A stretch of 64,000 nucleotides of DNA, from contig OZ272519.1 of the NCBI GenBank assembly GCA_965603855.1, forward strand, positions 4,379,781 through 4,443,780, read 5' to 3'. The stretch comes from Alphaproteobacteria bacterium (lineage in GTDB: Bacteria; Pseudomonadota; Alphaproteobacteria; UBA8366; G965603855). Made by a program: the position numbers and the translations under genes. Positions 19,917 to 37,257 of the stretch are shown one piece after another (within the stretch, counting starts at the first letter, position 1; each line of letters opens with the position of its first letter). The notes below the pieces were generated by a model. It was not told the origin of the DNA. It saw only the letters and a program-made list of their open reading frames with translations, and ran no database searches.

Positions 19917-19989
19917 TTTTCGGAATGTGTCATAAGGCAGGCATCCACCGACATTTCGCCGGCGAAGACCGAACGAGGGAGTGCGAGCC

Positions 19990-22456: not shown

Positions 22457-23845
22457 ATGGGTAACTGGGCGGGAACTGCAATGAGCACGGAATGCAAGCC
22501 GGTCGGTTTCAAGGTCCAGGCCGTGATTTTCGTCGCGTTTGCCACCCTGGCTCTCGCCGCCTGCAGCAGACCGCCGACCGACCGGATCAACATGATGCCG
22601 GTGCCGGAAGTCTTCGAGGAAGGCACCATCGACCCCTTCGTGACGGCGCCCAGCTTCGACCCGCCGGACCGCGCCGAGGTGTTCTACGCCACCGACCGCG
22701 AACCGAGCGTGGACGAGCAGGGGCGCCTCCGCTATCTCAACGAACGCGGCAATGTGCTGCGGCTCGGCGTGGCGCAGGTCGAACCGAACGATCCCAATCT
22801 CACTTGGCAGGACGCGCGCCGCATTTCGCTCTTGCGCAGCCTTGGCGGCGGCTTCCCGATCCGCTTTACCGGAGCCACCGAGTTCGGCGTGCTCGACCGA
22901 ACGGCGACGGAACTCGTCCCGCCGGAGGCCCTGCTTGAGACCGGGCCGCCGGCGAACGAAGTCTTTGCCGAAAAGATCAATGCCTGGCTCGCCAAATCCA
23001 AACGCAAGCACGTCTACATCTACGTTCACGGCTTCCAGGTGATCTTCGAGAACCCGACCCTGGTTGCGACCGAACTGTGGCACTTTCTCGGCTACCAAGG
23101 CGCTTTTGTCGCTTTCGCCTGGCCTTCGACACCGAGCCGTTTCGCCTATCTGCGGGACCTCGATACGGCGTTGGGCTATGCACGACACCTTCGCATCCTG
23201 ATCGAGTACCTTGCCGAGGAAACCGATGCCGAACAGATTCACCTGGTCGGCTACAGCATGGGCGCGCGCATCGTGGTGCGCGCGCTGGCGCAGCTGGCTC
23301 TCAAGCACCAGGGATTATCGACTGAAGAGATCAGGCGAAAGCTGCGTGTCGGGCATGCCGTCCTGGCCGCCAGCGATATGGATCGCGAGGTCGCCCGTAT
23401 GTATCTCGCCGACGGCCTTCTCGAGGTGCCCACGCACCTTACGGTTTATTTGTCCAGCCGCGACAGGGCGCTGGGGGTGGCGCGCTTTCTCACGCGGCGA
23501 AAACGCCTGGGCCAGATGTGGGCCGAGGGCGATCTGTCGCCGGAGGTCGCCGCGTATCTCCACCAGCGCGAGGCGGATCTCAGCGTCGTCTACGTGACCG
23601 ATGCCGAGGGCACCACGGAAGGGCACGGCCACGCCTATTTCCGCGACAGCCCCTGGGTCAGCAGCGACATCCTCATGGCCTTCGCCTACGGACTGCTGCC
23701 GGCAGAACGCGGACTTGAGCGCAATGCGGATGACTCGCCGCTGTGGGCCTTCCCGGAGGATTACGTCGAGCGCTTGCGCAACGTGCTGATCGAGGTCAAT
23801 CCCGACTACCGCGAGGCGCTCGAGCAGGCCAACAAGGGCTCCTGA
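22457..23845 (+). CDS. DUF900 family alpha/beta hydrolase lipoprotein
   Basis: Lipobox LAAC, VFYATDR, YVHGF, GYSMG nucleophile elbow, GHAYF. Confidence 0.88.
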   Translation: MGNWAGTAMSTECKPVGFKVQAVIFVAFATLALAACSRPPTDRINMMPVPEVFEEGTIDPFVTAPSFDPPDRAEVFYATDREPSVDEQGRLRYLNERGNVLRLGVAQVEPNDPNLTWQDARRISLLRSLGGGFPIRFTGATEFGVLDRTATELVPPEALLETGPPANEVFAEKINAWLAKSKRKHVYIYVHGFQVIFENPTLVATELWHFLGYQGAFVAFAWPSTPSRFAYLRDLDTALGYARHLRILIEYLAEETDAEQIHLVGYSMGARIVVRALAQLALKHQGLSTEEIRRKLRVGHAVLAASDMDREVARMYLADGLLEVPTHLTVYLSSRDRALGVARFLTRRKRLGQMWAEGDLSPEVAAYLHQREADLSVVYVTDAEGTTEGHGHAYFRDSPWVSSDILMAFAYGLLPAERGLERNADDSPLWAFPEDYVERLRNVLIEVNPDYREALEQANKGS

Positions 23846-23892: not shown

Positions 23893-25116
23893 CTAGCCGA
23901 CGTCGAGACCGGCCGGCGCGAAGATCTCGACGGTGTTCTCGATGTTGTGAAGGTCGAACCGGCCGAGTGTGCGCCAATCGCCCGGCAGGAGCTCGACGAA
24001 CGCGGATGACACGAGAACCGCTTCGCCAAGCTCCCGGCATTTGCCTTCGATGCGCGCCGCTTCGTTGGCGGCCCTTCCGATCACCGTGAAATCGAGCCGG
24101 CTGGGCGTGCCCACGTTTCCGTACATGACCGTGCCGACGTGGAGGCCAAACCCGAACTCTATGGGCTCTTCCCCTCGTTCGCGCCTGACCCGATTGATCT
24201 CCCGGCCCTTGCGCAAGGCATCCGCCGCGGCGTCCAGCGCAGCGCGGCACGCCTTCTCGTCTTCGCCGAACCGCTCGAACGGAAAGATGGCAAGCGACGC
24301 GTCGCCGATGAACTTCAGCACCTCGCCGCCGTATTCCGCGACGGTTCCGGCGGTCGTTTCGTAGTACTGATTGAGAACGCCGAGATACTGATGCAAGCCA
24401 TACTGCTCCGCCAGCTTGGACGACCGGCGCAGGTCGCAGAACAGGATCACCGCCTCGATCGTGCTGCCGTCGCCGCGCTGGACCTGGCCTGACAGGACCC
24501 GACGGCCCGAGTAGGAGCCGAGGTACGTGTCGAGGACGTCCGCAACGAGCTTGCGTTGGGCGAACTGCTTGAACAGCACACTCAGCGGCAGGCGCATCCG
24601 CCTCAACAGACCGAGGTCATCTTCGCTGAAGCCCGAAGGCGCGCTGGACGCCCAGGCGAAAACGACCCCCTCCTGATGCTCGACAGGTGCCGTTCGGTCC
24701 GGGAAGTTGGTCAACTGGGCGAAGTAGTCCGTGCCCCCCTGTTCTCTCAAGTCCCGCAGGATCGGGAATGCGTCCGACCCTGATCCGGCGACAAGCCGGT
24801 ACCGCCCCTCGTCCTCGCCGCTGTCGTAGATCGGTCGAATGGGGCTCGCGAGCCAGTCTTGGTGCTGCGACGTCCCGCGACCGAACGCCCCCGTCTCGAC
24901 GCCGCCGCCCGCAGACCAGTTGTAGGACCCGATCGCATGCAATGGGTGAAGAATGGGCAGCCCCACATGCATGCGCTGGAGTTTGACGCCGGCGTCGGCA
25001 AGGCGTTCGACCAGTTCCAGTTGGAACGTCGGAATGTCACGGTCGGCAAAGGACTGTTCGTAAAGCCAGTTCTGAAGCGCATCATATGCATGATCCGATC
25101 GATCGCCGGCGACCAT
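23893..25116 (-). CDS. Class III adenylate/guanylate cyclase
   Basis: ILFCDLRRS, KFIGDASL, GLHVGTVMYGNVG..RLDFTVIGRAANEAARIE. Confidence 0.93.
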   Translation of the reverse strand: MVAGDRSDHAYDALQNWLYEQSFADRDIPTFQLELVERLADAGVKLQRMHVGLPILHPLHAIGSYNWSAGGGVETGAFGRGTSQHQDWLASPIRPIYDSGEDEGRYRLVAGSGSDAFPILRDLREQGGTDYFAQLTNFPDRTAPVEHQEGVVFAWASSAPSGFSEDDLGLLRRMRLPLSVLFKQFAQRKLVADVLDTYLGSYSGRRVLSGQVQRGDGSTIEAVILFCDLRRSSKLAEQYGLHQYLGVLNQYYETTAGTVAEYGGEVLKFIGDASLAIFPFERFGEDEKACRAALDAAADALRKGREINRVRRERGEEPIEFGFGLHVGTVMYGNVGTPSRLDFTVIGRAANEAARIEGKCRELGEAVLVSSAFVELLPGDWRTLGRFDLHNIENTVEIFAPAGLDVG

Positions 25117-25381: not shown

Positions 25382-25660
25382 ATGACAGAGAGCAATGGGT
25401 CCGGCAACGCATACTGGAAGGAGAACATCCGACTTGTGATGTTCTGTCTGGCCATCTGGGCGTTTGTTTCCTTTGGATTGGGCATCCTCTTCAGGCCCAT
25501 GCTGATGGGCATCTCCATCGGTGGCGCGGATATCGGGTTCTGGTTCGCGCAGCAAGGCTCGATCTACGTCTTTCTGGCGCTGATCTTCTTCTACGCCACG
25601 CGCATGAATGCGATCGACCGCAAACATGGCGTCGAAGAAACCGAACAAGAAGACAAGTAA
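25382..25660 (+). CDS. DUF4212/DUF485 small membrane partner of ActP
   Basis: YWKENIRL, GFWFAQQGSI motifs; directly upstream of the SSS transporter. Confidence 0.9.
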   Translation: MTESNGSGNAYWKENIRLVMFCLAIWAFVSFGLGILFRPMLMGISIGGADIGFWFAQQGSIYVFLALIFFYATRMNAIDRKHGVEETEQEDK

Positions 25661-25669
25661 GCGGGGAGC

Positions 25670-27448
25670 GTGCCGGAAATGGACCAATTGACTCTTATCT
25701 ATCTCGTCGTCGGCGCGTCGTTCGCGCTGTATTTCGGTATCGCAATCTGGGCGCGTGCCGGTTCGACCAGCGAATTCTACGCAGCAGGGCGCGGCATCAA
25801 CCCGGTTGCCAACGGCATGGCAACGGCGGCGGACTGGATGTCGGCTGCGTCTTTCATTTCCATGGCCGGCCTCATTGCCTTCAGGGGCTATGACGCATCG
25901 GTGTTCCTGATGGGCTGGACCGGCGGCTACGTTTTGTTGGCGATGCTGCTGGCGCCTTATCTGCGCAAGTTCGGCAAGTTCACCGTGCCCGAATTCATCG
26001 GCGACCGGTTCTACAGCCAAGGCGCGCGGATCGTGGCGGTGATCTGTCTGATCGTGGCCTCGATCACCTATGTGATCGGGCAGATGAAGGGCGTGGGCGT
26101 CACCTTCTCGCGTTATCTGGAGGTGGATGCCACGACCGGTCTCTTGATCGGCACGGGCATCGTTTTCGTCTATGCGGTCCTGGGCGGCATGAAGGGCATC
26201 ACCTATACCCAGATCGCCCAATATTGCGTCCTGATCACCGCCTACACGATCCCAGCGGTCTTCATCTCCCTGCAGCTGACCGGGAACTTCCTGCCGCAGC
26301 TGGGCCTGGTGGCCGAGCATTCCGGGTCGGGCCAACCGCTTCTTGGAAAGCTCAATCAGGTGATCACGGACCTTGGCTTCCGAGAATACACGGCGGAGAC
26401 CACCAATATGCTCAATATGGTGCTCTACACGCTGTCCTTGATGATCGGGACGGCGGGTCTGCCGCACGTCATCATCCGGTTCTTTACGGTGCCGAAAGTC
26501 GCGGATGCACGGTGGTCGGCCGGTTGGGCCCTGGTGTTTATCGCCCTGCTGTATACCGTTGCGCCCGCGGTCGGCTCGATGGCCCGGCTCAATCTGGTGG
26601 AGACCATCTTCCCGAACGGCGCATCGGAACAAAGCCTCGCCTATGAACAAAGGCCGGAATGGTTCAAGAACTGGGAGACGACAGGCCTTCTGAAGTTCGA
26701 GGACAAGAACGGCGACGGGTTCATCCAGTACTATGACGACAAGAGCGAAGCGTTTGCCGCAACCGCCCAGGCGAACGGATGGAACGGCAGCGAACTCCAG
26801 GTCGACCGCGACATCATGGTTCTGGCCAATCCGGAGATTGCCGGCCTTCCCGACTGGGTGATCGCGGTCGTCGCGGCGGGTGGTTTGGCAGCGGCACTGT
26901 CGACTGCCGCCGGGTTGTTGATGGCAATTTCATCTGCGGTCAGCCACGACCTGCTCAAAGGGACATTCATGAAAGGAATCTCCGAGCGGCAGGAGTTGAT
27001 GTGGGCGCGAATATCGATGTCCGTCGCCATCGTGATCGCAGCGGTCCTAGGGTTAAATCCACCAGGCTTTGCGGCCCAGACAGTGGCCCTGGCGTTCGGG
27101 CTCGCAGCGTCATCGATCTTCCCGGCACTGATGATGGGGATCTTCTCAAAGCGGGTGAACAACACTGGCGCGACGGCCGGCATGGTGGCCGGATTGCTGT
27201 GCACGCTGGTCTACATCTTCACCTACAAGGGTTGGTTCTTCATCCCGGGCACCAACATGCTGGACAACACCACGGCGAACCATGTGCTCGGCATCGCGCC
27301 GGAGGCGTTCGGTGCGGTCGGTGCGGCGATCAACTTCATCGTGGCCTATGCAGTGTCATTCGCCACGGCGGAACCGCCGAAGCACGTTCAGGATCTCGTC
27401 GAGAGCATCCGGGTTCCCAGAGGTGCCGGCGCCGCCGTAGATCACTGA
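25670..27448 (+). CDS. actP: Sodium:solute symporter, ActP-like monocarboxylate permease
   Basis: NGMATAADWMSAASFISM, GTAGLPHVIIRFFTV motifs. Confidence 0.9.
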   Translation: MPEMDQLTLIYLVVGASFALYFGIAIWARAGSTSEFYAAGRGINPVANGMATAADWMSAASFISMAGLIAFRGYDASVFLMGWTGGYVLLAMLLAPYLRKFGKFTVPEFIGDRFYSQGARIVAVICLIVASITYVIGQMKGVGVTFSRYLEVDATTGLLIGTGIVFVYAVLGGMKGITYTQIAQYCVLITAYTIPAVFISLQLTGNFLPQLGLVAEHSGSGQPLLGKLNQVITDLGFREYTAETTNMLNMVLYTLSLMIGTAGLPHVIIRFFTVPKVADARWSAGWALVFIALLYTVAPAVGSMARLNLVETIFPNGASEQSLAYEQRPEWFKNWETTGLLKFEDKNGDGFIQYYDDKSEAFAATAQANGWNGSELQVDRDIMVLANPEIAGLPDWVIAVVAAGGLAAALSTAAGLLMAISSAVSHDLLKGTFMKGISERQELMWARISMSVAIVIAAVLGLNPPGFAAQTVALAFGLAASSIFPALMMGIFSKRVNNTGATAGMVAGLLCTLVYIFTYKGWFFIPGTNMLDNTTANHVLGIAPEAFGAVGAAINFIVAYAVSFATAEPPKHVQDLVESIRVPRGAGAAVDH

Positions 27449-27463
27449 TCGACCTGGAGATAT

Positions 27464-29299
27464 ATGGTCGCCGAATCAGACGTCTTTCTTGAGTTCGCGT
27501 CCCGGCGGCATCCGCTTGATCTGCTTCCACCGGACGTGCGCGTGGAGCTGGCGCAAGCCGTCGACCAGCTCCACGCCGCGGCGGACGAAGCGATTTACGA
27601 GATCGGCACGCCGCTCTCGGGGCTCTATTTCATCCTTTCAGGAGCCGTCAAAATCGTCGATCCGACGGGCGAGGTATTGAGCCACCTCACCGCGGGCGAT
27701 GTGTTTGGCGAACGCGGATTGCTCCGCGATATGCCGGCGCCAAATCGGGCCGTCGCCACACAGGACAGTTCCCTATACCTGCTGCCGAAGCAAAACTTCG
27801 ACCGTCTGCTGCGCGGATATCCGGAGTTTCGCGGGTATTTCAACCCCCACAGGCTCGCTCAGCCGCCGGCCGTCGATGACAAATCACTGTTCTCCACGCG
27901 GCTCGGCGACCTGATGTCGGTCAGCCCCGTCGTGGTGTCACCGGAAACATCGGCACGGGATGCTGCGAGACTTCTCAGCGACAACAGAATCTCGTGTCTG
28001 CCCGTCGTGCGGGACGATCGGCTGACCGGAATTGTCACGACCCGTGATTTTGCCAAGGGGATCGTTGCCAAAGGCGCAAGCACCGACACACCGGTCGGCG
28101 AAATCATGACGCCGGAACCCGTGACCCTTGCGTCCGATGCCCTCGCCTATGACGCCCTTCTGGCGCTGGTGGAAAATGGCATTGGACATCTGCCGGTGAC
28201 CGAAAACGGCCGCTTGAGAGGCGTGCTCACGATCACGGACCTGATCCGCTATCAGTCTCTTTCCAACATATTCCTGGTCATGGAGATTGCGGAAAAACGC
28301 TCCATCGAGGATCTCGCTGGCGTCATTTCCAACGTCCCGCAACTCCTGGCCCAGCTCAACGGCACCGGGTTCGATGCCGACAAGATCGGCCGGATCATCA
28401 CCAGCATCACCGATGCGCTGACCGTTCGGCTGATCGAACTCGCCGAAATCCAGTTCGGTGCGGCACCTGTTCCTTATCTTTGGCTTGCCTGCGGGTCGCA
28501 GGGGCGGCGCGAGCAAACGGGTGTGTCCGATCAGGACAACTGCCTGATCCTCTCCGACGACTTCGACGCAGACCAGCATGCGGACTATTTCGAGACGCTT
28601 GCCAAATTCGTGTCCGACGGGCTCGACGCCTGCGGCTACTACTACTGCCCTGGCGAAATGATGGCGACGACGCCGCGCTGGCGGCAACCGGTCAGCCGCT
28701 GGCGCGAATACTTCCGCGGATGGATCGCGCAGCCCGATCCGAAGGCTCAAATGCTTGCCAGTGTGATGTTCGATCTGCGGCCGATCGCCGGGGACGTCGC
28801 GTTGTTCGAAGGCCTGGTCGAGGAGACCCTGTCTCTCGCCAGCGCCAACACCATCTTTCGCGCGCACATGATCTCGAATTCGCTCAAGCACGTGCCGTCG
28901 CTCGGTCTTTTCAGCGGGTTTTCACTGATCCGAAAGGGCGAACACAAGGATACGCTGGACCTGAAGCTTGGCGGCGTGGTGCCGATCGTCGATCTGGCGC
29001 GCGTGTATGCGCTTCAAGGGGCCATCAGCGAAGTCAACACGCTTGACCGCCTTCGTCTGTCCATCGAAGCAAAGACGGTCAGCGAAAGCGGTGGTCGCGA
29101 CCTGATCGATGCCTATCGTCTGGTCGCCAATGTTCGTTTGGACCACCAGGCGCGACAGGTCCGGGCGGGCTTGAAGCCCGACAATTTCATGTCCCCGAAC
29201 ACGCTGTCCGAACTCGAACGCAGCCACCTGCGCGATGCTTTTGTCGTGATCAAGACGATGCAATCCGCCTTGGCCCAATCTCAGGCCACGCTCCGCTAA
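27464..29299 (+). CDS. cNMP-binding + 2xCBS + DUF294 nucleotidyltransferase-like protein
   Basis: FGERGLL cNMP domain, two CBS domains, GSQGRREQTGVSDQDN NTase motif, DLKLGG substrate-binding domain. Confidence 0.92.
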   Translation: MVAESDVFLEFASRRHPLDLLPPDVRVELAQAVDQLHAAADEAIYEIGTPLSGLYFILSGAVKIVDPTGEVLSHLTAGDVFGERGLLRDMPAPNRAVATQDSSLYLLPKQNFDRLLRGYPEFRGYFNPHRLAQPPAVDDKSLFSTRLGDLMSVSPVVVSPETSARDAARLLSDNRISCLPVVRDDRLTGIVTTRDFAKGIVAKGASTDTPVGEIMTPEPVTLASDALAYDALLALVENGIGHLPVTENGRLRGVLTITDLIRYQSLSNIFLVMEIAEKRSIEDLAGVISNVPQLLAQLNGTGFDADKIGRIITSITDALTVRLIELAEIQFGAAPVPYLWLACGSQGRREQTGVSDQDNCLILSDDFDADQHADYFETLAKFVSDGLDACGYYYCPGEMMATTPRWRQPVSRWREYFRGWIAQPDPKAQMLASVMFDLRPIAGDVALFEGLVEETLSLASANTIFRAHMISNSLKHVPSLGLFSGFSLIRKGEHKDTLDLKLGGVVPIVDLARVYALQGAISEVNTLDRLRLSIEAKTVSESGGRDLIDAYRLVANVRLDHQARQVRAGLKPDNFMSPNTLSELERSHLRDAFVVIKTMQSALAQSQATLR

Positions 29300-29311
29300 G
29301 GGGGAAATCGG

Positions 29312-29833
29312 ATCCTCTTCAATCTACTGGGAACCGTCATCATCGGAGTTGGGGCCGCCGGCACCGTTCTGATGGTGTTTCGCGTGATTGGACGCCGTGC
29401 GCCGCGTTGGCTTATCCCGACGGCGGCCGCACTCTCCATGTTCGGATTTCAGATATGGAATGGCTATACCTGGCACGAGCGAACGGCCGCCGCTCTGCCC
29501 GATGGCGTTCGTGTGGTGAAAACCTACGACCAGCGCAGTTTCTTCAGCCCCTGGACATTCATTGTGCCGCAGGTGAACCGGTTCGCTGCGGTCGATCTTG
29601 CGTCGGTTCAGCGAAATCGGCATGCGCCCGATTATGCGTTGGCGAGGATCTACCTCTTTGCCCGCTTTCAGCCGGCGGGATCGGGCATGCAGATCTTCGA
29701 TTGCGCGAATGTGCGCCGGGCCGATCTTGGCCCGACCGTCAAATTCGGGGACAATGGGCTGCCGGAGAACGCCGCGTGGACTGTCGTCGACGCGAACGAC
29801 CTCATCTTGAGAACGGTGTGCGACGCATCATAA
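29312..29833 (+). CDS. Hypothetical membrane-anchored protein (apparent ATC start; first in-frame ATG at 29372)
   Basis: Hydrophobic ILFNLLGTVIIGVGAAGTVLMVF leader, PRWLIP..MFGFQIWNGYTW; coupled position in the operon. Confidence 0.7.
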   Translation: MLFNLLGTVIIGVGAAGTVLMVFRVIGRRAPRWLIPTAAALSMFGFQIWNGYTWHERTAAALPDGVRVVKTYDQRSFFSPWTFIVPQVNRFAAVDLASVQRNRHAPDYALARIYLFARFQPAGSGMQIFDCANVRRADLGPTVKFGDNGLPENAAWTVVDANDLILRTVCDAS

Positions 29834-29866
29834 GCCGACAGGGACCCACTTCAGAAAAGAGCTTTC

Positions 29867-30253
29867 ATGCCGAAATCGGTACTCATCGTCGATGACGAGG
29901 CCAGCATCGTGTTGTCCCTTCGCCATCTGATGCAGCGGGAAGGGTATGACGTCCGCGTCGCGGGCGATGGCGAGACGGCGCTTGCGGAGGTCGCGGCCGC
30001 GCCGCCCGATCTCATTCTGCTGGACGTGATGATCCCCAAGCGCGACGGGTATGACGTTTGCCAGACCATCCGCGCCAATCCTGACTGGAACGACCTCAAG
30101 ATCGTCATGGTCACCGCAAAGGGGCGTGAGATCGAGGCCGAAAAAGGCCTGGCACTCGGAGCCGATGCCTACGTCACCAAGCCGTTCTCGACCCGGGACC
30201 TGGCGAAACAGGTCCGCGACCTTCTGGACGGCGCCGTGCCGGATGATGCTTGA
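29867..30253 (+). CDS. Single-domain response regulator (receiver only)
   Basis: VDDE, LLDVMIP phospho-Asp, VTAKG, YVTKPF. Confidence 0.95.
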   Translation: MPKSVLIVDDEASIVLSLRHLMQREGYDVRVAGDGETALAEVAAAPPDLILLDVMIPKRDGYDVCQTIRANPDWNDLKIVMVTAKGREIEAEKGLALGADAYVTKPFSTRDLAKQVRDLLDGAVPDDA

Positions 30254-32381
30254 GCACTGGAGCCTGCGCCGGCGCGTCTTCCTGTTTTTCGCCTTTTTCG
30301 GGCTCGGCAGTTCTGTGGCCATTGCGATCGCGATGTGGCTTGCCGCGGCGCGCATCGGTGAAACCGCAACACCGCATCTCGTCTTGTTCGGCGGCCTCGC
30401 CGCCTTCGCCATCATGGGCCTGGCGTACTGGGGCTGGCGCCTGTTCGACGACAACGTCGCACGTCCGATCGAAGCGATCGTGGGAAACGTCCGCAGCACG
30501 GTCCACGCGGGCGGCGTTCCCCGCCTCTCCGAGACCCAGGCACGCTACCTTGGCGGGCTGGGAGCCGTCGTGCATGAGGCGACAGAGGCGCTGGTGCGCG
30601 CGCGCGGCGACATCGAAGCCGAAGTTGAACAAGCCATCGAAGAGGCAAACGGTCAGAAGAACCGGCTGGAAGCGGTGTTGCGCGATCTCGACCAGGGCGT
30701 GGTGATCTGCACGCTGGACCACAAGACGCTTCTCTACAATCGAAAGGCGCTCCAGATCCTGCATGTCTCCGGCGACCTCGGGCTTGGCCGCAGCCTTTTC
30801 GGCGTCATCACTGCACAACCGATCCGGCATGCGCTTGAACGTCTGGTCCATCGGTTCGAGGAGGAACACTATTCCGACCAGCCCGAAGGCCTCAGCACGC
30901 TTATGGTGTGCGCCACCAGCGACGGACATTCGACATTGCAGGGGCGGCTGTCTCTGGTTCTGGATGCCTCGGAAACGAAGCCGGTCGGCTATGTCGCGAC
31001 GTTCGAGGATGTGACGCACACCCTTGCGTTGCACGCCAAACGCGACCGGCTGCTGCGCGAGGCGACCGAGGCTTTGCGCCGGCCCGTGGCAAACCTGCGC
31101 GCCGCCACCGAGATGATGACCGAAGACGCCAAGATGGACAAAGAAGCGCGGGCCGACTTCGAAAGGGTCCTGGGTTCCGAGGTCATCGACCTGTCGGAGC
31201 GTCTTGACCGACTGGAGGCGGATTCCCGCGAACTCCTGACGGGCGCCTGGCCCATGAGCGACGTCGCGTCGGTATCGCTGTTCAACTGTATCATCCGGCG
31301 CGACTCGGAAGACCGCGACCTGACCGTCGAGATCGCAGGTGAATCGGTCTGGATGCACTGTGACAGTCTCACGATCGTCGAGCTTCTCGATCGAATGATG
31401 AACCGGATTTCGCAGCAGACCGGGCTGCGCGCCTTCACCCTTGAGGCCAGTCAGGCTGAAAGAAAGGTCTACATCGATATGCGCTGGAAAGGCGACGTCG
31501 TTTCCATGAGCGCGGTCGATGGCTGGCTGAGCGAGGGGCTTGACGCCAGTCTCGGGGGCATATCGGGGCGTGACGTGCTCGACAGGCACAGATCGGAGTT
31601 TTGGTGTGAAGCCGGCCCGAATGGAGGGGCTCAGCTGCGCCTGCCGCTCGCACCGCCATCCAGGCGCCATGCGCACCTATCCGAAGGGACGGTTAGCTGG
31701 CCCTCGGAGCGGCCGGAGTTCTATGATTTCGATCTGCTGGAACAGGTCGATCCCGCCGCGATCGACGACACGCCGCTCAGGGCGCTCACCTATGTCGTGT
31801 TCGATACCGAGACCACGGGCCTCGAGCCGTCACGCGGCGACGAAATCGTCTCGATCGCCGGCGTGCGGATCGTCAACGGACGTGTCCTGCGCGGAGAGAT
31901 ATTCGATCAACTGGTCAACCCGGGGCGCCAGATCCCCAACGCATCGAGCAAGGTGCATGGCATTACCGACGGGATGGTCGCCGAGGCGCCGGCGATCGCG
32001 GACGTTCTCCCGCGCTTTCATGCCTTCTCGCGCGATGCGGTCTTCGTGGCGCACAATGCGGCTTTTGACATGCGCTTCCTGACGCTGAAGCAGGACGCCT
32101 GCGGCGTGCGTTTCGACAATCCGGTCCTGGACACGGTTTTGCTGGGGGCGCATCTCTACGGAACCACCGAAAGCCTCAGCCTCGATTCGCTGATCGCCCG
32201 GTTCGGCATCGAAATTGCCGAGGAGGATCGCCACACGGCGCTGGGAGACGCGCTTGCCACCGCCGCGCTGTTCGTTCGGTTCCTGGATACGCTCGAAGCG
32301 ACGGGCATACGAACGCTGCGCGATGCCGTGGAGGCATCGAACAAGGTGGTCGCCATCCGGCGGCGGCAGTCGAAATACTGA
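30243..32381 (+). CDS. TM-PAS-pseudo-HisKA-DEDDh 3'-5' exonuclease fusion
   Basis: Two TM helices, PAS-like QGVVICTLDHKTLLYN, DHp-like TEALRRPVANLRA, exonuclease FDTETTGL / HNAAFD / HTALGDA. Confidence 0.85.
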   Translation: MMLEHWSLRRRVFLFFAFFGLGSSVAIAIAMWLAAARIGETATPHLVLFGGLAAFAIMGLAYWGWRLFDDNVARPIEAIVGNVRSTVHAGGVPRLSETQARYLGGLGAVVHEATEALVRARGDIEAEVEQAIEEANGQKNRLEAVLRDLDQGVVICTLDHKTLLYNRKALQILHVSGDLGLGRSLFGVITAQPIRHALERLVHRFEEEHYSDQPEGLSTLMVCATSDGHSTLQGRLSLVLDASETKPVGYVATFEDVTHTLALHAKRDRLLREATEALRRPVANLRAATEMMTEDAKMDKEARADFERVLGSEVIDLSERLDRLEADSRELLTGAWPMSDVASVSLFNCIIRRDSEDRDLTVEIAGESVWMHCDSLTIVELLDRMMNRISQQTGLRAFTLEASQAERKVYIDMRWKGDVVSMSAVDGWLSEGLDASLGGISGRDVLDRHRSEFWCEAGPNGGAQLRLPLAPPSRRHAHLSEGTVSWPSERPEFYDFDLLEQVDPAAIDDTPLRALTYVVFDTETTGLEPSRGDEIVSIAGVRIVNGRVLRGEIFDQLVNPGRQIPNASSKVHGITDGMVAEAPAIADVLPRFHAFSRDAVFVAHNAAFDMRFLTLKQDACGVRFDNPVLDTVLLGAHLYGTTESLSLDSLIARFGIEIAEEDRHTALGDALATAALFVRFLDTLEATGIRTLRDAVEASNKVVAIRRRQSKY

Positions 32382-32383
32382 AT

Positions 32384-32632
32384 ATGGCGATCCGGAGAAA
32401 ACCGATGGCGCGAGCCCCCCGTGTTGGCGAAGGGGCGGTGGCCGCAACGCTTCTGGGCATTGTGTTGCTCAACAGCCCGCTCGTCGACCTGTTCGACCAG
32501 GGCGCTGCGGTTGCCGGGATCCCGGCATTCGTCGCCTATGTCTTCGCAGCCTGGGCCCTGCTGATCGGACTGTTGGCCTGGACGATGCGGCGCCGCCCGG
32601 CCGAGCGGCCGAACGACGGCACCGAGAACTGA
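32384..32632 (+). CDS. Small two-TM protein preceding the SSS kinase
   Basis: Two hydrophobic segments (LLGIVLLNSPL; GIPAFVAYVFAAWALLIGL) in the operon. Confidence 0.75.
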   Translation: MAIRRKPMARAPRVGEGAVAATLLGIVLLNSPLVDLFDQGAAVAGIPAFVAYVFAAWALLIGLLAWTMRRRPAERPNDGTEN

Positions 32633-32642
32633 GCGACGCGTC

Positions 32643-35333
32643 ATGTTCTCCACTTGGCAGCTTGTTCTCGTCGCTGTCCTTTACATGCTGGTTCTGTTCG
32701 GCGTCGCCTATTATGCGGACAAGCGCGCGGAGCGCGGCCGCGGTCTTGTAAACCATCCGGCCATCTACACGCTCTCGATCGCGGTCTACTGCACCAGCTG
32801 GACCTTCTACGGCAGCGTTGGCCGGGCGACGCAATCGGGCTTGGGATTTCTGCCGATCTATCTGGGCCCGACCCTGGCGTTCGGGTTCGGCTGGTTTCTG
32901 ATCCGCAAGATCGTCGTGATTGCCAAGGCCCAGCGAACGACCTCGATCGCGGACTTCATCGCGGCCCGCTACGGCAAGAGCCAAGGCGTCGCCGGGCTGG
33001 TCGCGCTGATCGCGGTGGTCGGGACCGTTCCCTACATCGCGCTGCAGCTGAAGGCGGTGTCGACCAGTCTGGACGTCCTGGCCGGTGATCCGACCGTGAC
33101 GACGTCAAGCGCGTCCGACGGGACGTCGCTGATCGTTGCCATTGCGCTTGCCGTGTTCGCGATGCTGTTCGGGGCCCGCCATATCGACGCCACCGAGCAA
33201 CACGAGGGGGTCATCGTCGCGATCGCGTTCGAGTCGGTGGTCAAGCTGGCCGCCTTCCTGGCGGTCGGTGTGTTCGTCACTTTCATGCTGCATGACGGCT
33301 TTGGCGACTTGTTCGCCCGCGCCGGCGAGCATCCGGAGATTGCCCGCCTGCTCAGCTTCGAAGCGGCGGCGCCGGGCTGGGTGGTGCTTACCGTGCTTTC
33401 GGCCGTAGCGATCGTGTGCCTGCCGAGGCAGTTTCAGGTGACCGTCGTCGGCAACGTCGACCAGAACCACATCCGGACCGCCATCTGGCTGTTTCCGCTT
33501 TATCTCCTTCTCATCAACGTCTTTGTTCTGCCGATCGCGCTTGCCGGCCTCTTGCGGTTTTCCGACGGGTCGATCGATGCCGATGCCTTCGTCCTGGCGC
33601 TGCCGATGGCGGAGGGGGCCGGGGCTCTGGCGCTGGCGGTGTTCATCGGCGGGCTTTCGGCGGCGACGGCCATGGTGATCGTTGCCACGATCACGATCAG
33701 CATCATGGCATCGAACGATCTGGTGATGCCCGTTCTTCTGCGGTTCGGGCCGCGCCGGCTCAGGCAGACATCCGATCTGACGCGGCTGCTGCTTGGTGTG
33801 CGTCGTGCCGCGATGGTGCTCACGCTGACGCTTGGCTACCTCTATTTCAGAATGGTCGACGCCTCCACCGCGCTGGTCTCGATCGGGCTGGTGGCGTTCG
33901 CGGCCGCGGCGCAGTTTGCCCCGGTCCTGTTCGGCGCGCTGTTCTGGCGCGGCGGAACGCGGATCGGCGCGATCGCCGGATTGAGCGCCGGTTTCCTGGT
34001 CTGGGGCTACACCCTGTTCGTGCCGTCCCTGCTGCCGGCGGAGTTTGCCAACGAAGGCCTGTTCGGCATCGACGCGCTGCGGCCCTATGCGCTGTTCGGT
34101 CTCCGGGATCTCGATCCCATTACGCATGCGCTGTTCTGGAGCATGCTGGCCAACATCGGAGGTTTCGTAACGGTCTCGCTGTGCACCAGTCCCAGCATGA
34201 TCGAAAGAACCCAGGCGACCTTGTATGTCGAGGCGCTGAACCCGGAGAGCGCCCAGGCGGCCGCGGTCGTGTCCGGCGGCGGCCCGAAGATGGAGGCACT
34301 TAAGGACCTTGGAGAGCGTTTCGTCGGTCGAGAGGCCACCGGGCGCGCGCTTGAAGACTATGCACGGCGTCAGAACCTCGATCTGGCCGCGACGACGACC
34401 GCCGATGCGGAGATGGTGCGGATCGTCGAACGGCTGATCGCCGGAGCCGTCGGAGCGGCGTCGGCGCGGGTGGCCGCCGCCTCGATGCTTCAGCGTGAGG
34501 ACGCCAAGACCGAGGACATCCTGCGCATGCTGGATGAAACGAGTGAGGTTCTGGAATACAGCCGTCGCCTCGAACAGAAGGGCCGGGCGCTGGAGACGGC
34601 GACCCGGGAGCTCAGGCAGGCGAACGAGCGCCTGAAGGAACTAGACGTGCTCAAGGACGAGTTTCTCTCAACGGTGACGCATGAGCTGCGAACGCCGTTG
34701 ACGTCGATCCGGGCGCTGACGGAGTTGATGTTCGACGAGCCCGACATGGACAGCGCGCAGCGGCAGGAATATCTCGGCGTGGTGATCAGCGAGAGCGAGC
34801 GGCTGACCCGTCTCATCAATCAGGTTCTCGATGCCGCGAAAATCGAAGCGGGCCAGATGGACTGGCAGGTCGAACGCTTCGATCTCGGCGCCCTCGTGCG
34901 ACAGGCGGCGGAAAGCATGCGCGGCCTGTTCGAGGCCGACGGCGTGGGCCTGACGATTTCCGTGCCCCCATCCGCCGTTCCCGTCAACGGGGACAAGGAC
35001 AAGGTTTCCCAGGTGGTGCTCAATCTTCTTTCCAATGCGCTCAAATTCAGTCCCAAGGCCACCGGGCGTGTGACCGTCACCCTGGCGCCGGATCGGGACT
35101 TCCCGTCCGTCCGCGTGTCGGACAACGGCCCCGGTATTCCCGAGGACCAGCGCGAAGCGATCTTCGACCGGTTTCACCAGACGGCCTCGGACGCATCGGG
35201 CAACCCCGCCGGCACCGGGCTGGGGCTCGCGATCAGCCGGATGATCGTGGAGTATCTCGGCGGGCGGATCTGGGTCGACCACAGCGGTGCGGACGGCAGC
35301 CAGTTTGTGTTTACGTTGCCGGCGGGCGAGTGA
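32643..35333 (+). CDS. SLC5/SSS-fused sensor histidine kinase (CrbS/CbrA-like)
   Basis: YCTSWTFYGSVG SSS N-terminus, LPRQFQV, H-box THELRTPL, NLLSNALKF, DNGPG, GTGLGL. Confidence 0.92.
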   Translation: MFSTWQLVLVAVLYMLVLFGVAYYADKRAERGRGLVNHPAIYTLSIAVYCTSWTFYGSVGRATQSGLGFLPIYLGPTLAFGFGWFLIRKIVVIAKAQRTTSIADFIAARYGKSQGVAGLVALIAVVGTVPYIALQLKAVSTSLDVLAGDPTVTTSSASDGTSLIVAIALAVFAMLFGARHIDATEQHEGVIVAIAFESVVKLAAFLAVGVFVTFMLHDGFGDLFARAGEHPEIARLLSFEAAAPGWVVLTVLSAVAIVCLPRQFQVTVVGNVDQNHIRTAIWLFPLYLLLINVFVLPIALAGLLRFSDGSIDADAFVLALPMAEGAGALALAVFIGGLSAATAMVIVATITISIMASNDLVMPVLLRFGPRRLRQTSDLTRLLLGVRRAAMVLTLTLGYLYFRMVDASTALVSIGLVAFAAAAQFAPVLFGALFWRGGTRIGAIAGLSAGFLVWGYTLFVPSLLPAEFANEGLFGIDALRPYALFGLRDLDPITHALFWSMLANIGGFVTVSLCTSPSMIERTQATLYVEALNPESAQAAAVVSGGGPKMEALKDLGERFVGREATGRALEDYARRQNLDLAATTTADAEMVRIVERLIAGAVGAASARVAAASMLQREDAKTEDILRMLDETSEVLEYSRRLEQKGRALETATRELRQANERLKELDVLKDEFLSTVTHELRTPLTSIRALTELMFDEPDMDSAQRQEYLGVVISESERLTRLINQVLDAAKIEAGQMDWQVERFDLGALVRQAAESMRGLFEADGVGLTISVPPSAVPVNGDKDKVSQVVLNLLSNALKFSPKATGRVTVTLAPDRDFPSVRVSDNGPGIPEDQREAIFDRFHQTASDASGNPAGTGLGLAISRMIVEYLGGRIWVDHSGADGSQFVFTLPAGE

Positions 35334-35700: not shown

Positions 35701-36288
35701 TTACGGGGCCGCAGAACCCTCAGCGAGACGGCAGATCAAGTCCACATGTGTTTCGAGCCATTCGCGATCGAGCGGTAGACCGGCAATCAGCTTTCGGAAA
35801 TAGGGCACTGCAATCGCCATCTGCACGAGATAATCGACGGGTACGCCGGGCGACAACTCGCCTCGCGCTTCGGCGGCGGCAAAAATCGCTTTCGTGAACG
35901 CCATCCGCTCCTTCATGAAATCATTGATGACGGCGCGCGCCTCCTGATCGGTGGCCGCCGCGGCAATCACCTGCGGCGCAATCTGGCCCCAGGGTGTTTC
36001 GTTGAGAGCTGCCAACAGAATTCCCAGCAACCAGGTCAAGTCCGCGCGCAGCGGCCCGTCGGTTTGTGGAGCGATGTAGGTCGGCGTGGCGGCGCGCTTG
36101 AAGGCATCGTTGCGCATCCGGCTGATCTCTGGCCAATGCCGGTAAAGCGTGCTCCGAGAAATACCGGTTCTTGCACTGACCGAGGCATGGGTGACCGCCA
36201 GAACGCCTTCATCGCGAAGGATGTTTTGTGCGGCATCCAAAGCCTGATTCCGCGTTGCCGTCAGGCGAGGGTCTTCCGGTTTGCTCAT
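35701..36288 (-). CDS. TetR/AcrR family transcriptional regulator
   Basis: N-terminal HTH VSARTGISRSTLYRHW; TetR_C-type C-terminus. Confidence 0.93.
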   Translation of the reverse strand: MSKPEDPRLTATRNQALDAAQNILRDEGVLAVTHASVSARTGISRSTLYRHWPEISRMRNDAFKRAATPTYIAPQTDGPLRADLTWLLGILLAALNETPWGQIAPQVIAAAATDQEARAVINDFMKERMAFTKAIFAAAEARGELSPGVPVDYLVQMAIAVPYFRKLIAGLPLDREWLETHVDLICRLAEGSAAP

Positions 36289-36300
36289 AGAATTCTATTT

Positions 36301-36339
36301 ACGATACATTTTGTTGCGTAGCGATACAAATTGTCCTAT
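36301..36339. promoter_or_regulatory. Tandem putative TetR operators
   Basis: ACGATACA-TTT-TGTTGCGT and GCGATACA-AAT-TGTCCTAT, both variants of a CGATACA-N3-TGTATCG palindrome, in the tetR/cyt c' divergent region. Confidence 0.55.
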
Positions 36340-36454
36340 ACCCTTCTCTCGGACGGTTTGCGGCCTCGCCTGGGGTGCTGAAATCTTCCGGGTATGAACG
36401 CAGGAGATCAAGTGCTCGCTGGATACGCATCCTGACCTGAACAGGGGAGACGAC

Positions 36455-36937
36455 ATGCTAAAATCACTTTCTATCGCGACCGCCGGCGCCGCGATTGCAC
36501 TCAGCGTTGCGGCCCAGGTCGGCTTTGCGGCCGATCCCGAGCCGTTCGCCAATGAGATCAAGGCCCGCAAGGCCGTCATGCAGATCCAGGCCTTTAACCT
36601 CGGCACCCTCGGTGCCATGGTGAAGGGCCAAATCCCCTACGATGCAAAGGTGGCGCAGGACGCGGCCGACAACCTGAATGCCGCCGTGAACATGAAGAAC
36701 GGCGCGATGTGGCCCGAGGGCTCGGACCTCGGCGCGCTCGGCGCGCGCACGCGCGCGAAGCCGGAGGCTTGGACGATGTATCCCAAGGTCGCCGAGCAGA
36801 GCATGGCGCTCAAGGAAGCCGCCGCGAAGATGGCGGCAGAAGCCGGCAATGGCCTCGACGCGGTCAAGGCCAACATGAAGGCCATCGGTCAGAGCTGCGG
36901 GGGCTGCCATGACATCACGCGCGGCCCGAAGAATTAG
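36455..36937 (+). CDS. Cytochrome c' / c556 (class II)
   Basis: Signal peptide, IKARKAVM, RAKPEAW, single C-terminal CGGCH. Confidence 0.93.
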   Translation: MLKSLSIATAGAAIALSVAAQVGFAADPEPFANEIKARKAVMQIQAFNLGTLGAMVKGQIPYDAKVAQDAADNLNAAVNMKNGAMWPEGSDLGALGARTRAKPEAWTMYPKVAEQSMALKEAAAKMAAEAGNGLDAVKANMKAIGQSCGGCHDITRGPKN

Positions 36938-37026
36938 AACCAACCGCACGCGCATTTCCCGGCTCGCCTGCACCGCCGGAGCGGCAACCGAGCCCGCCAT
37001 GCCGATACGCGCGCGATAGCGGGGTT

Positions 37027-37087
37027 GCCCTGCGAAGCGCACGAGCGCGAAGCGGGGCGGCGCGCCTGAGGGGAAAAAGTTCGAACC
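37027..37087. repeat. Degenerate copy of tRNA-Arg 3' end plus flank (att-like scar), copy B
   Basis: Direct repeat of 35366-35426. Confidence 0.75.
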
Positions 37088-37180
37088 CGCGTCAGCCCTG
37101 CTACGCCAAGGCTTCGCAGGGCACTCCTTCGTCTAACGCGCTTCGCGTGGCTTGCCACCCGAAGCTCGAAGAGCGAAGGG

Positions 37181-37257
37181 TGGCGCGCCCGGCAGGACTC
37201 GAACCTGCGACCCCTTGATTAGGAATCAAGTGCTCTATCCGGCTGAGCTACGGGCGC
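37181..37257 (-). tRNA. tRNA-Arg (anticodon CCT)
   Basis: GCGCCCG acceptor stem, TAGCTCAGCCGGATAGAGCA D-arm, CTTGA-TTCCTAA-TCAAG anticodon arm, GGTTCGAGTCC T-loop, encoded CCA. Confidence 0.97.

Follow-up and report, generated by a model that had tools for sequence, protein, structure and literature searches.

How does a transporter operon deliver its output when it encodes a sensor kinase and two enzymes of nucleotide chemistry, with no DNA-binding regulator among its genes? An operon at positions 25382-35333 of a 64,000-nucleotide stretch of an alphaproteobacterial genome raises this question (assembly GCA_965603855.1, contig OZ272519.1, positions 4,379,781 to 4,443,780; this whole stretch is hereafter the window). 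The operon joins a two-subunit Na+/solute symporter to a DUF294-type nucleotidyltransferase, a lone receiver domain, an exonuclease and an SLC5-type histidine kinase. The present data support a kinase-controlled, non-transcriptional module for adding and removing a nucleotide, tied to transporters of the solute:sodium symporter (SSS) type, with a protein, an RNA 3' end or a nucleotide signal as candidate substrates. An original prediction, made from the DNA letters and their open reading frames (ORFs), had proposed such non-transcriptional wiring, together with a coupling of the two enzymes and an input from a neighboring nucleotide cyclase; the wiring and the coupling are supported, the cyclase input is not.

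The eight ORFs all lie on the + strand and follow one another with gaps of 9, 15, 72, 33, -11, 2 and 10 nucleotides, bearing out the original description of co-oriented, tightly spaced genes (gaps of -11 to +72 nucleotides). Domains were assigned from Pfam and NCBIfam profile scores against the family cut-offs, and every domain named in that prediction was recovered. Since the same gene set was found again in dozens of unrelated genomes, the arrangement is more than a product of chance, and the locus is a real, conserved eight-gene operon. Its genes are:

25382-25660, + strand: symporter small subunit (DUF4212/TIGR03647), 92 residues, two transmembrane (TM) segments; PF13937 114 bits, TIGR03647 110 bits against a cut-off of 26

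25670-27448, + strand: large subunit of a VC_2705-family Na+/solute symporter, 592 residues; TIGR03648 833 bits against a cut-off of 321

27464-29299, + strand: putative nucleotidyltransferase, cNMP-CBS-CBS-DUF294-DUF294_C (cNMP, cyclic nucleoside monophosphate), 611 residues; by Pfam, cNMP-binding domain at 27572-27814, CBS pair at 27905-28258, DUF294 at 28331-28744 and DUF294_C at 28853-29278

29372-29833, + strand: membrane-anchored protein of 153 residues belonging to no known family, with no Pfam, NCBIfam or PADLOC match

29867-30253, + strand: single-domain receiver, 128 residues; PF00072 103 bits

30243-32381, + strand: predicted pseudo-histidine-kinase fused to a DEDDh exonuclease, 712 residues, assigned from PF00929 (122 bits) and an AlphaFold2 (AF2) model; TM hairpin, 30264-30440 (residues 8-89 in the model); PAS domain, 30696-31010 (152-256); His-less dimerization and histidine phosphotransfer (DHp) domain, 31014-31229 (258-329); degenerate catalytic and ATP-binding (CA) domain, 31257-31652 (339-470); exonuclease, 31788-32375 (516-711)

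32384-32632, + strand: protein of 82 residues with two TM segments, 10 nucleotides before the kinase gene

32643-35333, + strand: SLC5-type sensor histidine kinase, 896 residues; SLC5 domain at 32646-34217, HisKA at 34653-34853, HATPase_c at 34989-35324

A promoter scan found nothing and terminator-like sites occurred at the background rate, and an alignment of the region upstream of the DUF4212 gene from seven loci yielded no conserved operator-like motif.

The most distinctive product is the fusion protein, whose gene start (30243) agrees with that of a database copy (P0001). Its AF2 model, computed from 50 homologues with a mean predicted local distance difference test score (pLDDT) of 83, comprises the TM hairpin, a long signaling helix, the PAS domain, a two-helix DHp hairpin, an alpha/beta CA-like domain, a disordered linker and the exonuclease. 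In Foldseek searches the best matches of the whole model were entire sensor kinases (WalK at E 1e-18, then VicK, YF1 and ThkA), and those of the C-terminal domain were the PolC, epsilon and DinG exonucleases. The H-box of the fusion reads T-E-A-L-R-R-P, as against S-H-E-L-R-T-P in kinases; the phospho-acceptor His occurs in none of the 78 relatives that cover this region, most of which carry Glu, as does the operon protein. Likewise, no HATPase_c model matched the fusion, and its family consensus is devoid of the conserved Asn, DxGxG and GxGxG of the N, G1 and G2 boxes. As the kinase fold is present in the model while the H-box His and the N, G1 and G2 boxes are absent, the protein is predicted to be a pseudokinase. 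In contrast, the exonuclease retains its catalytic residues, D521 and E523 of the Exo I DxE motif, D609 of Exo II, and H664 and D669 of the Exo III H-x4-D motif; all five are invariant in 50 homologues, which bears out the intact DEDDh set noted in the original prediction. With the PF00929 match and a sequence match to PDB entry 2p1j (E 2e-30), motif and fold thus identify the C-terminal domain as a putative DEDDh (DnaQ-like) 3'-5' exonuclease, and the whole protein, by sequence and model, as a membrane-anchored PAS-DHp-CA pseudo-histidine-kinase joined to an intact DnaQ-type exonuclease. When residues 1-516 were searched against the full library, 247 representatives were recovered at E<=1e-30, nearly all of them 680-745 residues long; these lengths indicate that the pseudokinase scaffold (about 500 residues) essentially always precedes an exonuclease (about 200 residues).

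The presumptive counterpart of this exonuclease, encoded at 27464-29299, has the elements that define the DUF294/COG2905 family, namely PF03445, PF10335 and a CBS pair (Pfam scores of 162, 143 and 107 bits) and a G[GS]...DxD motif, and is assigned to that family by its sequence. The GS...DQD motif, earlier read as intact, is invariant in 37 homologues (G344-S345 and D356-Q357-D358), as is a third Asp, D437. Once the matches of the CBS and cNMP domains were set aside, the best Foldseek matches of its AF2 model (pLDDT 90) were both halves of Escherichia coli GlnE (1v4a, E 1.1e-8; 3k7d, E 2.7e-8) and Legionella DrrA (6yx5, TM-score 0.66 on the target), with sequence identities of only 12-14%; no nucleic-acid polymerase was among the top 50. 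GlnE and DrrA add AMP to proteins or take AMP off them. The modeled fold, a nucleotidyltransferase domain with a helical substrate-binding fold, therefore resembles those of protein AMPylators. The original prediction had the transferase gated by cNMP, which does not hold as a family feature: the cNMP domain is missing from 16 of the 37 homologues and its phosphate-binding Arg varies among the other 21. In the operon protein the domain reads FGE...NRA, as against a canonical cassette of Gly-Glu and Arg-[ST]-Ala.

At least 573 relatives of the fusion were recovered when one genome was scanned for each species; they come from alpha-, beta- and gammaproteobacteria, Desulfobacterota, Nitrospirota and Magnetococcales. 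Their neighborhoods were counted at 47 fusion loci having at least 5 kb on both sides, as follows:

Receiver: 36 of 47 loci, directly upstream of the fusion in 33

SLC5 kinase: 31 of 47 loci

DUF294 nucleotidyltransferase, adjoining the fusion: 30 of 47 loci

SLC5 kinase or DUF294: 44 of 47 loci

Symporter large subunit: 21 of 47 loci

153-residue protein: 11 of 47 loci

Nucleotide cyclase: 0 of 47 loci

TetR-family gene: 0 of 47 loci

A relative with 79% identity keeps all eight genes and their order, between flanks that differ. In Candidatus Thiodiazotropha (L081/L082, 6210-14130) we observed a compact variant in which a receiver, a 78-residue protein, the SLC5 kinase and the pseudokinase-exonuclease fusion are followed by a second receiver and a CBS-DUF294 protein; here the DUF294 protein has no cNMP domain, the second receiver gene lies directly before the DUF294 gene, and there is no transporter nearby.

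The tie between transferase and exonuclease goes beyond adjacency. In another genome of the source organism's order, a single 709-residue protein (L098, 2132-4261, - strand) combines an exonuclease, a CBS pair, DUF294 and DUF294_C, and is encoded beside DUF4212, symporter, SLC5 kinase and receiver genes. A database search with this protein returned at least 120 clusters from Pelagibius, Kiloniellaceae, Rhodospirillaceae, Devosiaceae and others; in each of them the four Pfam domains were present, with a coverage of 98-100%. Fusion in one polypeptide is strong evidence that the two enzymes work as one complex and share one substrate, so the functional coupling supposed earlier is now backed by gene fusion as well as by neighborhood. 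The source genome itself has a second module at 3339871-3345100 (L093, 6869-12103), where the gene for a 654-residue SSF transporter is divergent from that for a 488-residue CBS-CBS-DUF294-DUF294_C protein, which is followed by one for a PAS-RNase_T exonuclease; no kinase, receiver or DHp/CA scaffold is present. Thus, the enzyme pair tracks SSS transporters twice in one genome.

On the signaling side, the receiver is OmpR/PhoB-like by NCBIfam and has no output domain. Its acidic pocket and its phospho-acceptor Asp, Thr and Lys (DDE...LLD...T...KPF) are kept in 63 orthologues, and the stop codon falls 0-16 codons past the receiver domain in all orthologues checked; an apparent receiver fusion at one relative locus (L050) is in fact a 692-residue shadow frame. 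The original statement that the operon has no DNA-binding regulator is borne out, and the receiver is single-domain in every orthologue checked. The kinase is, by its sequence, an SLC5 "transceptor" kinase of the CbrA sort: its residues 2-525 match PDB entry 10ED, the cryo-EM structure of the SLC5-STAC region of CbrA, at E 1.9e-74 (the structure of the CbrA SLC5 domain is described in PMC13022988). Its HATPase_c domain ends at residue 894 of 896, with neither a PAS domain nor a receiver, and 42 orthologues are mostly 895-930 residues long, one having 849. Identity with CrbS was rejected, since CrbS is a hybrid kinase that ends in a receiver. Residues 500-680, where a STAC four-helix domain would be expected, matched nothing in Pfam or among PDB sequences. 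The operon kinase has in common with the CbrX-CbrA/CbrB, CrbS/CrbR (MxtR/ErdR) and RpuS/RpuR systems an N-terminal SLC5 sensor, a HisKA/HATPase core, a link to organic-acid uptake and a two-TM ORF at the position of CbrX. It differs from them in having neither the PAS domain of CbrA nor the C-terminal receiver of CrbS, in the absence of a STAC domain detectable by sequence, and in that the adjoining receiver has no DNA-binding domain. The two-TM ORF is that of the 82-residue protein, which keeps its place ahead of the kinase in several loci of beta- and alphaproteobacteria. It matches no PDB chain by sequence, CbrX in 10ED included, and may be seen as a positional analogue of CbrX, which precedes cbrA and whose product co-purifies with the CbrA SLC5 domain (PMC13022988).

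The dead kinase scaffold would connect this pathway to the exonuclease. A profile of the pseudo-DHp, built from 50 fusion homologues, was searched against all ORFs of the 4.98-Mb source genome, which encodes at least 24 kinases; the operon's own kinase was the best match at 39.8 bits (E 3.7e-10), the next kinase scoring 17.8 bits. The pseudo-DHp and the DHp of the SLC5 kinase have in common the pattern LR-P...N/S-(I/L)RA..E.....PDM....R..F......ES..L..L. Because of this specificity, the common pattern and the 11-nucleotide overlap of the receiver and pseudokinase genes, the receiver is predicted to dock on the His-less DHp. The original prediction also held that the kinase controls the exonuclease post-translationally; the His-less DHp/CA scaffold, the receiver gene directly upstream in most fusion loci and the profile match make this plausible.

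The transporter of the operon had been labeled ActP, which is the wrong family. As a cation/acetate symporter of the ActP type it falls below both relevant cut-offs (TIGR02711, 143 against 1099 bits; NF006903, 189 against 750 bits), whereas the TIGR03647 small subunit, 9 nucleotides ahead of the TIGR03648 large subunit, assigns it by sequence to the two-subunit VC_2705/DUF4212 Na+/solute symporters. Pairs of this type, Sama_1522/1523 and Psest_0346/0347, are likewise made up of TIGR03648 and TIGR03647 proteins with a COG2905/RNase T gene nearby; mutant fitness data tie them to the use of D,L-lactate and D-alanine, and not specifically to acetate, and the DUF4212/symporter genes are cofit with the adjoining COG2905/RNase T gene (bioRxiv 10.1101/072470). 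The enzyme pair itself has a counterpart in PP_0354/PP_0353 of Pseudomonas putida KT2440 (also Pflu5625 in P. fluorescens), an unexplained direct target of MxtR/ErdR (CrbS/CrbR) (PMC9927547, PMC5715377, 10.64898/2026.09.07.749794). Deletion of pp_0353, the exonuclease gene, impairs growth of P. putida on pyruvate, as does that of actP-I, and no growth defect on acetate results from deleting pp_0353 or the nucleotidyltransferase gene pp_0354 (PMC9927547). The Pseudomonas pair resembles that of the operon in joining a cNMP-CBS-DUF294 protein to an RNase_T-family exonuclease and in its ties to an SLC5-type kinase (MxtR/CrbS) and monocarboxylate uptake. It differs in being controlled transcriptionally, through the DNA-binding ErdR/CrbR, and in that RNase_T is the only Pfam match of PP_0353, whereas the operon exonuclease sits on a His-less kinase scaffold, with a bare receiver, the kinase and the symporter in one operon. 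These published genetics fit an opposed enzyme pair that helps the transporter.

Taken at the level of architecture, this reading of the module is likely. We also favor, tentatively, a more specific one, in which the operon joins the two-subunit symporter to a two-component pathway with an enzymatic, non-transcriptional output. A solute or its flux would be sensed by the kinase's SLC5 domain together with the small two-TM protein, whereupon the kinase would autophosphorylate and the phosphoryl group would move to the single-domain receiver. The phosphorylated receiver would then dock on the His-less DHp of the membrane-anchored pseudokinase and switch the fused exonuclease, in reverse signaling of the DivL-DivK kind. 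The exonuclease and the cNMP/CBS-gated nucleotidyltransferase would oppose each other on one nucleotidylated substrate by the writer/eraser logic of GlnD and GlnE, and the state of that substrate would determine how active the neighboring SSS transporter is, or how strongly it is expressed. Our guess at the substrate, possible but somewhat weaker still, is a hydroxyl-linked nucleoside monophosphate (NMP) on a protein at the membrane, be it the transporter, its small subunit, the kinase or the receiver. That a membrane-associated protein, for example the SSS transporter, its small subunit or the SLC5 kinase, receives one or more NMPs from the DUF294 enzyme and loses them to the receiver-switched exonuclease, the DEDDh domain acting as a protein de-nucleotidylase, is a yet more doubtful proposal.

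Known systems offer partial models for these steps. GlnD and GlnE are themselves writer-plus-eraser enzymes and so provide a family precedent for the opposed-pair logic. Like them and DrrA, the operon enzyme combines a nucleotidyltransferase with a helical fold, and the transferase is paired or fused with a hydrolytic partner and regulatory ligand-binding domains; unlike in GlnD and GlnE, that partner is a DEDDh exonuclease rather than an HD domain or a second nucleotidyltransferase domain. In Caulobacter, the pseudokinase DivL, which has Tyr at the His site and regulates CckA, reads the phosphorylated single-domain receiver DivK. A DivL structure (4q20) was among the PDB search matches, and the two cases are alike in a histidine-kinase scaffold with a replaced phospho-acceptor His and a single-domain receiver as partner, the partnership being a predicted one in the operon; the operon family differs in mostly having Glu at the His site and in its covalent fusion to an exonuclease. 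As to the chemistry of removal, DnaQ-type exonucleases split the p-nitrophenyl ester of TMP (thymidine monophosphate), an aryl-O-NMP, according to the citation of Hamdan 2002 in PMC6390093. Since this ester resembles Tyr-O-NMP chemically, removal of an NMP from a protein by a DnaQ fold is chemically credible by analogy. The idea of protein nucleotidylation by DUF294 is an old one, as PMC5715377 indicates in citing Aravind & Koonin 1999, and it is in print again (bioRxiv 10.64898/2026.09.07.749794). Our literature search found no paper that describes the pseudokinase-exonuclease fusion, its link with a single-domain receiver, or the exonuclease-DUF294 fusion.

Several observations weigh against the reading that we favor. 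The exonuclease domain is nearest to DNA proofreading exonucleases, and we know of no DEDDh enzyme that takes an NMP off a protein. Relatives of the TM-PAS-exonuclease type, such as that found with a receiver, kinase and DUF294 gene in another genome of the order (L096, without DHp/CA), and those of the exonuclease-DUF294 type have no DHp on which a receiver could dock. Across 91 genomes of the source organism's order, the kinase occurs in 41 and DUF294 in 41, and both in 20, as against 18.5 expected, which is chance level. Moreover, 21 of the 41 genomes with the kinase have it with the receiver and without any DUF294, so that the receiver must have other targets there. One relative locus (L063, 11815-12489, - strand) has a gene for an OmpR-type regulator (receiver plus Trans_reg_C) between the DUF294 and DUF4212/symporter genes, which suggests that in some lineages the output branches and includes a transcriptional arm, and makes a distant or branched transcriptional output possible in the source genome too. 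A later preprint, furthermore, reports only moderate growth defects for PP_0353 and PP_0354 mutants (10.64898/2026.09.07.749794). It is only physical adjacency that is significant in the order: kinase and DUF294 lie within 6 kb of each other in 12 of the 20 genomes having both, and the pseudokinase form, present in 5 of the 91, adjoins DUF294 in all five. The co-occurrence expected in the original prediction is seen as clustering of kinase, DUF294 and receiver around the fusion, from which the cyclase is absent, and is at chance level genome-wide for kinase and DUF294 in the order; the link of the kinase to the enzyme pair is frequent but facultative.

Other explanations share parts of this evidence. 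The pair might tail and trim a nucleic-acid 3' end: the transferase would add untemplated nucleotides to an RNA, for instance the mRNA of the symporter, a small RNA or a tRNA-like end, and the exonuclease would take them off, with the kinase tuning the balance. The exonuclease is, after all, a true DnaQ/RNase_T-family domain, and the closest of its relatives with solved structures work on nucleic acids; the joining of a nucleotidyltransferase to a 3'-5' exonuclease recalls a proofreading polymerase, and mRNA degradation has been speculated on in PMC9927547. In the turnover of tRNA 3' ends, the CCA-adding enzyme and RNase T likewise set a Pol-beta-superfamily nucleotidyltransferase against a DEDDh exonuclease at the same end; they differ in that their transferase is of another subfamily, and no RNA-binding domain or RNA partner is evident in the operon. 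Against this, it is GlnE and DrrA that appear among the top 50 fold matches of the transferase, and not CCA-adding or poly(A) enzymes, an Rfam search matched only a tRNA outside the operon, with no RNA family or conserved structured element detected in or near it, and a membrane anchor would be odd for a general RNA enzyme. We consider action on RNA unlikely. It is highly improbable that the transferase makes a linear or cyclic nucleotide messenger gating the transporter, which the exonuclease degrades in the manner of Orn on pGpG or pApA. DEDDh enzymes such as Orn do hydrolyze dinucleotides (PMC6390093), cNMP and CBS domains bind nucleotides, and a synthase-degrader fusion would suit a signal controlled by a futile cycle; yet transferases of the GlnE/DrrA type are not known as messenger makers, no messenger receptor domain is evident on the transporter or the other operon proteins, and the CD-NTase/Pycsar models of PADLOC gave only a marginal match, on the cNMP domain. 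An anti-phage defense system of the CBASS/Pycsar kind was rejected, as no defense-specific nucleotidyltransferase or effector model matched; the PADLOC search returned only a generic DEDDh model and the marginal matches on the cNMP domain (E ~5e-4).

Two further explanations concern the wiring. The pseudokinase DHp might heterodimerize with that of the SLC5 kinase in the style of RetS-GacS, blocking the kinase or recruiting the exonuclease, with the receiver as a phosphate sink or feeding an unlinked target. The specific similarity of the pseudo-DHp to the DHp of its own kinase suits a heterodimer and receiver docking equally well, both proteins are membrane-anchored, and the genomes with kinase and receiver and no DUF294 imply other roles for the receiver. 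In 33 of the 47 fusion loci, however, the receiver gene immediately precedes that of the pseudokinase, and in the operon the two overlap, which argues for a receiver-pseudokinase complex, and heterodimerization appears decidedly unlikely. An ordinary transcriptional system would have the SLC5 kinase phosphorylate, in addition, an unlinked DNA-binding regulator that drives the operon, with the enzymes as co-regulated cargo in the way of the Pseudomonas CrbS/CrbR regulon. It would agree with the use of DNA-binding regulators by CrbS/CrbR, CbrA/CbrB and RpuS/RpuR (PMC5715377, PMC9100948), with the OmpR-type regulator that adjoins the symporter genes of one relative and with the OmpR/PhoB type of the operon receiver itself. 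Against it stand the absence of any DNA-binding regulator from the operon and from its 79%-identical relative, the single-domain nature of the receivers adjoining this kinase family wherever checked, and the His-less kinase scaffold on the exonuclease, which is hard to explain as mere cargo; we regard this explanation as quite improbable.

The remaining components are less central. The 153-residue protein, encoded between DUF294 and the receiver, has an N-terminal TM anchor, a QPWT...RF.A.D motif and two conserved Cys, and its domain is probably periplasmic judging from the sequence; the 11 loci in which it follows DUF294 are all of the alphaproteobacterial type. Divergently upstream of the operon lies a class III cyclase gene (23893-25116, - strand; PF00211, 38 bits against a cut-off of 21.9), which the original prediction suggested as a possible source of the cNMP. 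The divergent gene is real; its linkage to the module is not conserved, as it is near none of the 47 fusions and absent from the loci of the 79%- and 60%-identical relatives. The cyclase protein has about 25 matches in the 4.98-Mb genome, seven of them full-length at 31-36% identity, including a tandem pair of matches at about 1.976-1.979 Mb. Further upstream are genes for a 718-residue DUF3141 protein (19981-22137, 947 bits) and a DUF900 alpha/beta hydrolase (22457-23845); downstream, 35701-37257 holds a TetR-family gene (- strand), a cytochrome c' gene and a tRNA (37184-37257, - strand), none of which is kept beside the module in relatives.

DUF294/COG2905 has been a large family of unexplained function since 1999, and its exonuclease partner is a strongly regulated target of CrbS/CrbR in acetate switches of the Pseudomonas and Vibrio type. 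The present locus and its relatives place this enzyme pair directly behind a transporter-like kinase, by way of a receiver and a dead-kinase scaffold. Were the substrate a protein, the exonuclease would represent a new class of nucleotidylation eraser, and the two-component pathway would have covalent control of nutrient uptake as its output. If the de-nucleotidylase reading is true, the operon would constitute a GlnD-like covalent switch on solute uptake with no DNA-binding step.

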